From: a virus
Lineage: Duplodnaviria > Heunggongvirae > Uroviricota > Caudoviricetes
DNA length: 53,137 nt
Direction: 5' to 3' (one strand)
Virus record (IMG/VR): IMGVR_UViG_2645727867_000003
Below, one piece after another: positions 14,040 through 14,719 of the stretch. Both the position numbers and the translations under genes were made by a program. The notes beneath the pieces were generated by a model. That model worked only from the letters and a program-made list of their open reading frames with translations, searched no databases and was not told the DNA's origin. How positions within the stretch are numbered: the first letter of the stretch is position 1; each line of letters starts with the position of its first letter.

Positions 14040-14350
14040 TCATGACTGTGCTGCAAAGCTCAGCGCGTCTTCCAGCGCCGCAAACGGATCCACCTCCGGC
14101 TTATCCTCATCCTCGCCCCAGCAGAGCATGGCGTCCTTCAGTGCAACATTCATACCCTGTGCCCCGAAAACCGCTTTCACGATCTGTGCATTACGGATAT
14201 CCCCGCGCTCATCACCCAGCGGGGATATCCTGTCGAACTCCATCCACATCATCGCCTCGCTCGCACTCAGGCTGTGCCGCAGTTCAGATAAGGTGCGCCC
14301 CAGACGGAGCGCAAGTCGCATCAGAAAGCGAATTTCCGGGCGGGCTACTT
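14040..14350 (-). CDS. T: T portion of tail assembly chaperone G-T, reached by -1 frameshift from G
   Basis: The -1 frame downstream of the slippery heptamer A_AAA_AAG (minus strand, 14348-14354) reads KKVARPEIRFLMRLALRLGR..., the start of the 14040..14321 ORF. Confidence 0.65.
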
Positions 14351-14719
14351 TTTTCTGGCCGACTCTGCATCAGCGATCAGTTCCAGTGCCTGACGCAGCA
14401 ACCGGGCATGTACCGGACCATAGACGGCCAGCACCTGCTCACGGTCGTCCGGAGTGAACACCCGCTGCAGGTCCGTATCACACAGGACATCGCAGAACAG
14501 CGTCACATCCGCTTCCAGGTTACGGCGGGTTTTCGCCACCACCGACAGGGTATCGTCATCCTCTCCATCACCATTGAGCACGTCCTGCCACAGATACCAG
14601 GCCTCTGCCGAAGGCTCCCGCAGCACCACGCTGACATTACCCCATTCCGGCACCTTCACCGTTTTATGACGAAACCCTGACAGTCTGGCCAGCGCCAGCG
14701 TTTTCAGATCCTTTTTCAT
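14345..14719 (-). CDS. G: tail assembly chaperone G
   Basis: 124-aa acidic protein between the major tail and tape measure genes, ending ...ESARKK on the slippery site. Confidence 0.75.
   Translation of the reverse strand: MKKDLKTLALARLSGFRHKTVKVPEWGNVSVVLREPSAEAWYLWQDVLNGDGEDDDTLSVVAKTRRNLEADVTLFCDVLCDTDLQRVFTPDDREQVLAVYGPVHARLLRQALELIADAESARKK

Follow-up and report, generated by a model that had tools for sequence, protein, structure and literature searches.

The G/G-T system of phage lambda is a textbook example of recoding (Levin, Hendrix & Casjens 1993; Xu, Hendrix & Duda 2004, 2013, 2014). A balanced ratio of G to G-T is needed for assembly of the lambda tail, and both proteins are absent from virions (review PMC5009743). 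The heptamer A_AAA_AAG is the most shift-prone sequence characterised in E. coli and is the site found in dnaX; the single tRNA-Lys of this bacterium pairs better with AAA than with AAG (review PMC5009743). AAAAAAG had already been listed as a G-T slip site by Xu, Hendrix and Duda (2004), as cited by Lynch et al. (2012, PMC3483164), in which VT1-Sakai, ψM2, PVL, PV83, ul36 and a Borrelia prophage are named. Using GeneTack, Antonov et al. (2013, NAR 41:6514, PMC3711429) subsequently grouped 41 frameshift genes, related to HK97, in a 'phage tail assembly chaperone' cluster. Two cassettes of this Phage_TAC cluster were cloned between GST and MBP (PMC3711429). The cassette of fs-gene 15618692 (Table S2) gave 7% ± 0.79 −1 frameshifting in the E. 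coli GST-MBP reporter, and a G_GGA_AAG_CCG_TAA cassette gave 6% (PMC3711429).

The locus described here lies within 53,137 nucleotides of viral DNA (IMG/VR record IMGVR_UViG_2645727867_000003), the whole of which is referred to as the window. The minus strand codes for both G and the T region, and both were read there directly. The features of the junction are as follows.

14345..14719, minus strand: gene G, a tail assembly chaperone of 124 aa (MKKDLK...ARKK), from translation, Pfam PF06222, PHROG 344, PDB 2OB9 and RefSeq.
14348..14354, minus strand: slippery heptamer A_AAA_AAG in the zero (G) frame, forming the final two sense codons of G, read directly.
14345..14347, minus strand: the G stop codon TAG, abutting the 3' end of the heptamer, read directly.
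14040..14348, minus strand: the T segment in the −1 frame, 102 codons plus TGA, from translation, Pfam PF06223 and PHROG 14766.
14319..14321, minus strand: an internal ATG, the start of a separate 93-aa 'T' in public records, from RefSeq/GenBank annotation.

On the minus strand G begins with the ATG at 14719..14717, stops at the TAG at 14347..14345 and has the C-terminal residues ...ADAESARKK. Direct reading gives its terminal codons as GCC (14359-14357) AGA AAA AAG TAG, exactly as the initial annotation had them. The interval given there, 14340-14356, covers the stop codon and the heptamer but leaves the minus strand unstated. [quoted passage not shown] The frame translates as VARPEIRFLMRLALRLGRTL...AAQS* and has 102 open codons, ending at 14040, so that the earlier claim that it runs into T, and the peptide quoted in its support, both agree with our reading. 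The predicted G-T fusion, join(14719..14348, 14348..14040) on the minus strand, has 226 aa and T as its C-terminal half. Its predicted junction is …ESARKK-VARPEIR…, within the junction peptide ...AESARKKVARPEIR... and the spanning sequence ...ESARKKVARPEIR.

This arrangement is of the lambda type, with a second open reading frame in the −1 frame that is open across the end of G. The −1 frame is open just five codons 5' of the heptamer, which confines a productive shift to approximately seven codons. AAAAAAG occurs 26 times on the two strands of the window, against 10.3 expected from shuffles, and its presence alone therefore proves nothing. The rarity of the heptamer was accordingly dropped as evidence, and a test of frame and open reading frame layout was used instead. 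Only the copy at 14354..14348 combines, within one gene, a long zero-frame open reading frame on its 5' side, an adjacent zero-frame stop and more than 100 open −1 codons. At the window frequency of 26 per 106,274 strand positions, the chance of an in-frame AAAAAAG within the seven-codon overlap is approximately 0.002 by simple arithmetic.

Residues 1-124 of G align with positions 1-124 of the Pfam profile PF06222 (Phage_TAC_1; E=1.6e-61, 206 bits against a cut-off of 25). G also matches the structure of the HK97 tail assembly chaperone (PDB 2OB9, E=1.1e-45), belongs to PHROG 344 and is identical to a coding sequence annotated by RefSeq as 'phage tail assembly chaperone'. PF06222 was the sole match at E<=0.01, with none to PF06894 (Phage_TAC_2), the family of lambda G. 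The T segment matches PF06223 (Phage_tail_T, 'Minor tail protein T') with E=2.6e-19 and 69.9 bits, the gathering score being 25.9. A single family of 224 positions, PHROG 14766, spans both proteins, with G at 2-122 and T at 125-224, and such fusions thus exist in phage annotations. The gene order, all on the minus strand, is major tail, G, T and tape measure, and the neighbouring features are given below.

14734..15450, minus strand: major tail protein gene, upstream of G, with a C-terminal Ig-like domain (PHROG 158, E=1.5e-116; Pfam Ig_3 / I-set).
14011..14034, minus strand: terminator-like hairpin followed by a U-run, lying between the end of T and the beginning of the tape-measure gene (−10.8 kcal/mol for the fold; z=−2.8).
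10750..13992, minus strand: tape-measure gene of 1080 aa, downstream of T (Pfam Phage_HK97_TLTM, TMP_3 and Tape_meas_lam_C; PHROG 339).

A second terminator-like hairpin with a U-run is found at 15473..15487 (minus strand), just 5' of the major tail gene. In HK446, an HK97-like phage, rho-independent terminators are annotated 3' of the major tail gene and 5' of the tape-measure gene. The hairpins at 14011..14034 and 15473..15487 suggest attenuated read-through inside the tail operon.

Further features were noticed elsewhere in the window. A 645-aa open reading frame at 19780..21717 (minus strand), which is the major capsid protein in the YYZ-2008 annotation, joins a Peptidase_S78 prohead protease (residues 48-153) to an HK97-type capsid domain (386-635). 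Five copies of the STnc100 sRNA (Rfam RF02076, 120-172 bits) lie at 31854..32833 and 34592..34804 (minus strand), four in tandem and the fifth approximately 1.8 kb away. A tRNA-Arg(TCG), an adjoining tRNA with a CAT anticodon (Met or Ile2-like), the sok antitoxin RNA, a C4 antisense RNA and isrK represent the usual cargo of lambdoid and Stx-type prophages.

35618..35778; 42160..42334; 43043..43227, minus strand: the tRNAs, sok, C4 antisense RNA and isrK, as a group.

The portal region (16984..19568, minus strand) contains a 454-aa portal open reading frame separate from one of 407 aa, the latter built of tandem repeats of approximately 55 aa. The portal frame ends TTC AGG GGG ATT CTG AAA AAA TGA (junction 18215..18201, G-run 18223..18219), and the 407-aa frame, which is −1 relative to it, opens with an ATG that overlaps this TGA. 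Both are covered by PHROG 2271 'portal protein' (859 positions), and a single fused portal of 861 aa is found in phage YYZ-2008 (gp54) and in NZ_CP027462. The fused and split forms differ in a run of six or five G's, respectively, about 20 nt before the stop. Among 79 IMG/VR loci the portal is fused in 23 and split in 56, with the same flanking haplotypes in both states; A_AAA_TGA and the overlapping ATG are kept in all split forms but one. The split could reflect translational coupling, a −1 slip by which the long portal is regained, a homopolymer change resembling phase variation, or decay.

Conservation of the G/T junction was surveyed in ten diverse phage homologues and in 80 prophage loci from a one-genome-per-species collection, each junction being analysed. 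The classes were counted over 77 distinct prophage loci from different bacterial species.

In-frame A_AAA_AAG in the overlap of G and the −1 frame: 42 of 77 loci, 30 of them with a stop directly 3'.
A_AAG followed by a stop only: 13 of 77.
HK97-type CGG GAA AAG … CCC CCG GCG TAA, with no canonical in-frame heptamer: 7 of 77.
G_GGA_AAG: 5 of 77.
A_AAA_AAC followed by a stop: 5 of 77.
Other or unclassified junctions: 5 of 77.

The slip site is kept at the same position across diverse homologues. A canonical heptamer is present in 54 of the 77 distinct loci (A_AAA_AAG in 42), and a stop lies directly 3' of the slip site in 48, of which 13 have only A_AAG and the stop. With A_AAA_AAG at 42 loci and an adjacent stop at 30 of these, the window has the commonest layout of the G/T family and is not a variant of it. 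The initial annotation had presented the site as a conserved recoding strategy achieved with a slippery sequence different from that of lambda. The recoding is indeed conserved and the heptamer does differ from that of lambda, but there is nothing peculiar about a sequence that is the commonest of its family and was catalogued in 2004. The heptamer and TAG are also unchanged in 80 close IMG/VR relatives, while the adjacent bases vary. This first IMG/VR scan returned mostly near-identical relatives and informs on invariance only; the diversity comes from the one-genome-per-species scan. Some relatives carry 8-9 A's at the slip site, and the homologues HK446 gp11 and Bcep176 gp69' are deposited as joined coding sequences.

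Two sub-groups of G/T junctions have no canonical in-frame X_XXY_YYZ, and both retain the −1 T frame. The HK97-type sub-group (e.g. HK446, 760..787) reads CGG GAA AAG TCT CAA CCC CCG GCG TAA. The Klebsiella/Pantoea-type sub-group (e.g. Klebsiella phage Kp4885-3, 780..799) has GCA AAG TAA only, i.e. A_AAG and a stop. Members of these sub-groups would need single-tRNA slippage or imperfect re-pairing in the P site.

Between the G stop and the ATG, which is invariant across homologues and lies nine codons into the T frame, the nine −1-frame codons are conserved as protein. A Pro is invariant in the ten-sequence alignment, and a Phe is invariant among 27 distinct junctions with A_AAA_AAG plus a stop. 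Entropy in the −1 frame is approximately twofold greater at third positions (12.2 bits) than at first (5.7) or second (6.7) positions. Judged from this sequence pattern, the stretch evolves like coding sequence of the −1 frame. As no start codon precedes the nine codons, they can be translated only by ribosomes coming from G.

The anatomy of the sequence, the family memberships, the conservation of the site and the reporter frameshifting of an identical sequence make it very probable that this site serves G/G-T recoding in the HK97-type tail module of an E. coli lambdoid prophage close to the Stx-converting phages. Most ribosomes translating G would terminate at TAG to give the 124-aa chaperone G, and a minority (about 7% in the reporter) would slip back one nucleotide on A_AAA_AAG. 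The shift would take place by tandem −1 slippage of two tRNA-Lys from AAA AAG to AAA AAA, where re-pairing would be perfect given the single tRNA-Lys of E. coli. The slipped ribosomes would then read GTA GCC CGC... and append the 102-residue T domain to form the 226-aa fusion. By analogy with lambda, the G portions would bind the tape-measure protein, the T portion would recruit the major tail protein, and both G and G-T would be absent from the finished virion. The fusion would presumably be made during phage development, at some ratio to G, and would serve in tail assembly. Direct detection of the G-T protein of this prophage was not found in the literature searched.

The 75-nt insert of fs-gene 15618692 is the same, with zero mismatches, as positions 14374..14300 of the window (minus strand). 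The G-T frameshift site of the window is thus already known, and its exact sequence has been measured experimentally. The claim of a G-T tail chaperone frameshift is upheld by the PF06222/PF06223 matches, the synteny, the conserved site and this 7%, and the reporter assay that had been proposed as a check was in effect already run on the identical sequence between GST and MBP (Antonov et al. 2013). The value refers to a context of 18 nt upstream and 45 nt downstream, which is neither the full mRNA nor the phage.

Stimulatory elements were sought on both sides of the heptamer. The 20 nt on its 5' side, GCTGATGCAGAGTCGGCCAG, contain no Shine-Dalgarno-like motif, and none is conserved across 32 loci. 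A weak hairpin begins 8 nt 3' of the heptamer (z=−2.0 for a 63-nt fold, z=−0.09 for a 100-nt fold), and this proximal hairpin is not conserved in relatives. A stronger 8-bp hairpin, GCGCUCC...GGGGCGC (GCGCUCCG/UGGGGCGC; 14294..14313, minus strand), lies 34 nt beyond the G stop and 37 nt beyond the heptamer and is shared by many relatives. The invariant ALRxGR motif of T is encoded at the same place, and relatives with Gly-Lys instead of Gly-Arg lack the hairpin. As it is too distant and tracks the ALRxGR codons it was rejected as a stimulator, and is probably a by-product of coding. Since no conserved stimulator was found, the efficiency of the frameshift during infection is uncertain.

The sole recurrent feature flanking the slip site is the stop codon. 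It is conceivable, although we put this forward tentatively, that the adjacent stop is a working part of the signal, a 'shifty stop'. After translocation, slow termination would leave the A site empty and the P-site tRNA-Lys would slip from AAG to AAA. The ratio of G to G-T would then be set by the activity of release factors instead of by RNA structure. This additional route, a competition with termination, and tandem slippage yield the same protein.

It is improbable that T is made alone from the internal ATG at 14321 with the heptamer being incidental. RefSeq and GenBank do list a separate 93-aa 'phage tail assembly protein T', a sequence present on 779 contigs of a protein collection from which the fusion is missing, and the Met is invariant in the alignment. 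Furthermore, frameshifting and downstream initiation may coexist in some cassettes (Antonov et al., PMC3711429). However, there is no Shine-Dalgarno sequence 5-10 nt from this ATG, the nearest GGA ending 13 nt upstream (12 intervening bases), and the nine preceding codons show protein-level conservation and coding-type −1-frame substitutions with no start codon before them. The identical sequence frameshifts at 7% in the reporter (PMC3711429), the slip site is conserved family-wide, and lambda produces T solely as part of G-T (review PMC5009743). Some independent initiation of the short T may nevertheless make a minor contribution.

A shift at the level of transcription, with RNA polymerase slipping on the A-run and adding an A to some mRNAs, is very improbable. 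The window has just six A's, against the approximately eight or more described for productive slippage (PMC3711429), and the G 3' of the A's is conserved, which is what slippage of tRNA-Lys on AAG would predict. Homopolymeric A runs can indeed cause realignment (PMC3711429) and relatives with 8-9 A's at the site do occur, yet members with G_GGA_AAG, which lack a long homopolymer, keep the architecture and give 6% in the reporter. It is scarcely credible that the heptamer fell at this position by chance, with no recoding and with the T frame a decaying remnant. AAAAAAG is certainly frequent in the window (26 copies), but the correct frame and open reading frame layout are found at only one of them, and the T frame encodes a complete, conserved Pfam domain. 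The conservation of the site in dozens of species and the confirmation of the shift by reporter assay exclude a chance placement.

Despite the measurement made on this sequence in 2013, the predicted fusion is still missing from annotation. Several Shiga-toxin-producing E. coli genomes contain prophages that are 100% identical in this region, and phage YYZ-2008 and other Pankowvirus-type Stx phages match it at 99%. Of 5,426 complete E. coli genomes, 1,246 contain matching sequence, as do 92 phage records, 89 of them with an identity of at least 99%; the 75-nt cassette is 100% identical in the 60 phage records among the matches listed. All records of close relatives that were inspected give G and T as separate coding sequences, with T starting from the ATG at 14321 and no slippage annotated. 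The exact 226-aa fusion was not found in a collection of approximately 15 billion proteins, in which contigs carrying the 124-aa G number at least 1000 and those carrying the 93-aa T number 779. With T annotated from the ATG and the fusion missing from such a collection, the product is invisible to proteomics databases and homology searches. As a discovery the site has small value, the G-T frameshift being textbook recoding and A_AAA_AAG the classic E. coli heptamer; its practical value is for annotation.

The site was compared with systems already described. Lambda has the same gene order, a heptamer ending in A_AAG near the end of G, a low-percent shift and a T in PF06223, and its LALRxGR-type motif begins at the same distance past the slip site. 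The end of lambda G was read directly as GCG GGA AAG TGT TCG ACG GTG AGC TGA, with T continuing …FALKLAREMGR, in agreement with the initial annotation that G_GGA_AAG is the equivalent lambda site. The lambda heptamer lies five codons before the G stop, whereas A_AAA_AAG of the window abuts the stop. The two G proteins belong to PF06894 and PF06222, respectively, with no cross-hit, and the lambda G:GT ratio is approximately 30:1 (review PMC5009743), compared with 7% for the window cassette in the reporter. The E. coli lambdoid phage VT1-Sakai has an in-frame A_AAA_AAG like the window (TCA AAA AAG CAT TCG AAG GCG AGC TGA), and its T matches PF06223, as do those of lambda and the window. Its G is of the lambda type (PF06894), however, and its heptamer, as in lambda and unlike the window, precedes the stop by five codons.

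The HK97 pair gp13/gp14 (PDB 2OB9; HK446 gp12/gp11, a joined coding sequence) shares with the window a PF06222 G, the T family, the tail module and the HK97-type tape-measure domain, and is about 60% identical over G-T. Loci of the HK97 type differ in that they have no canonical in-frame X_XXY_YYZ and G runs four further codons to its stop. For fs-gene 15618692 (Antonov et al. 2013) there is no difference from the window at the sequence level, the setting being a GST-MBP reporter and not a phage. The dnaX gene of E. coli, which produces gamma and tau, uses A_AAA_AAG, the single tRNA-Lys and a −1 shift, all as in the window. Its shift of approximately 50% is accompanied by a Shine-Dalgarno-like stimulator about 10 nt upstream of the heptamer and a stable hairpin 5-8 nt downstream of it, in contrast to the window, which has no such upstream motif, a weak non-conserved proximal hairpin and approximately 7%. 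As far as can be judged from sequence comparison, the system of the window works like lambda G/G-T and shares its T domain, with a G of the HK97 gp13 family.
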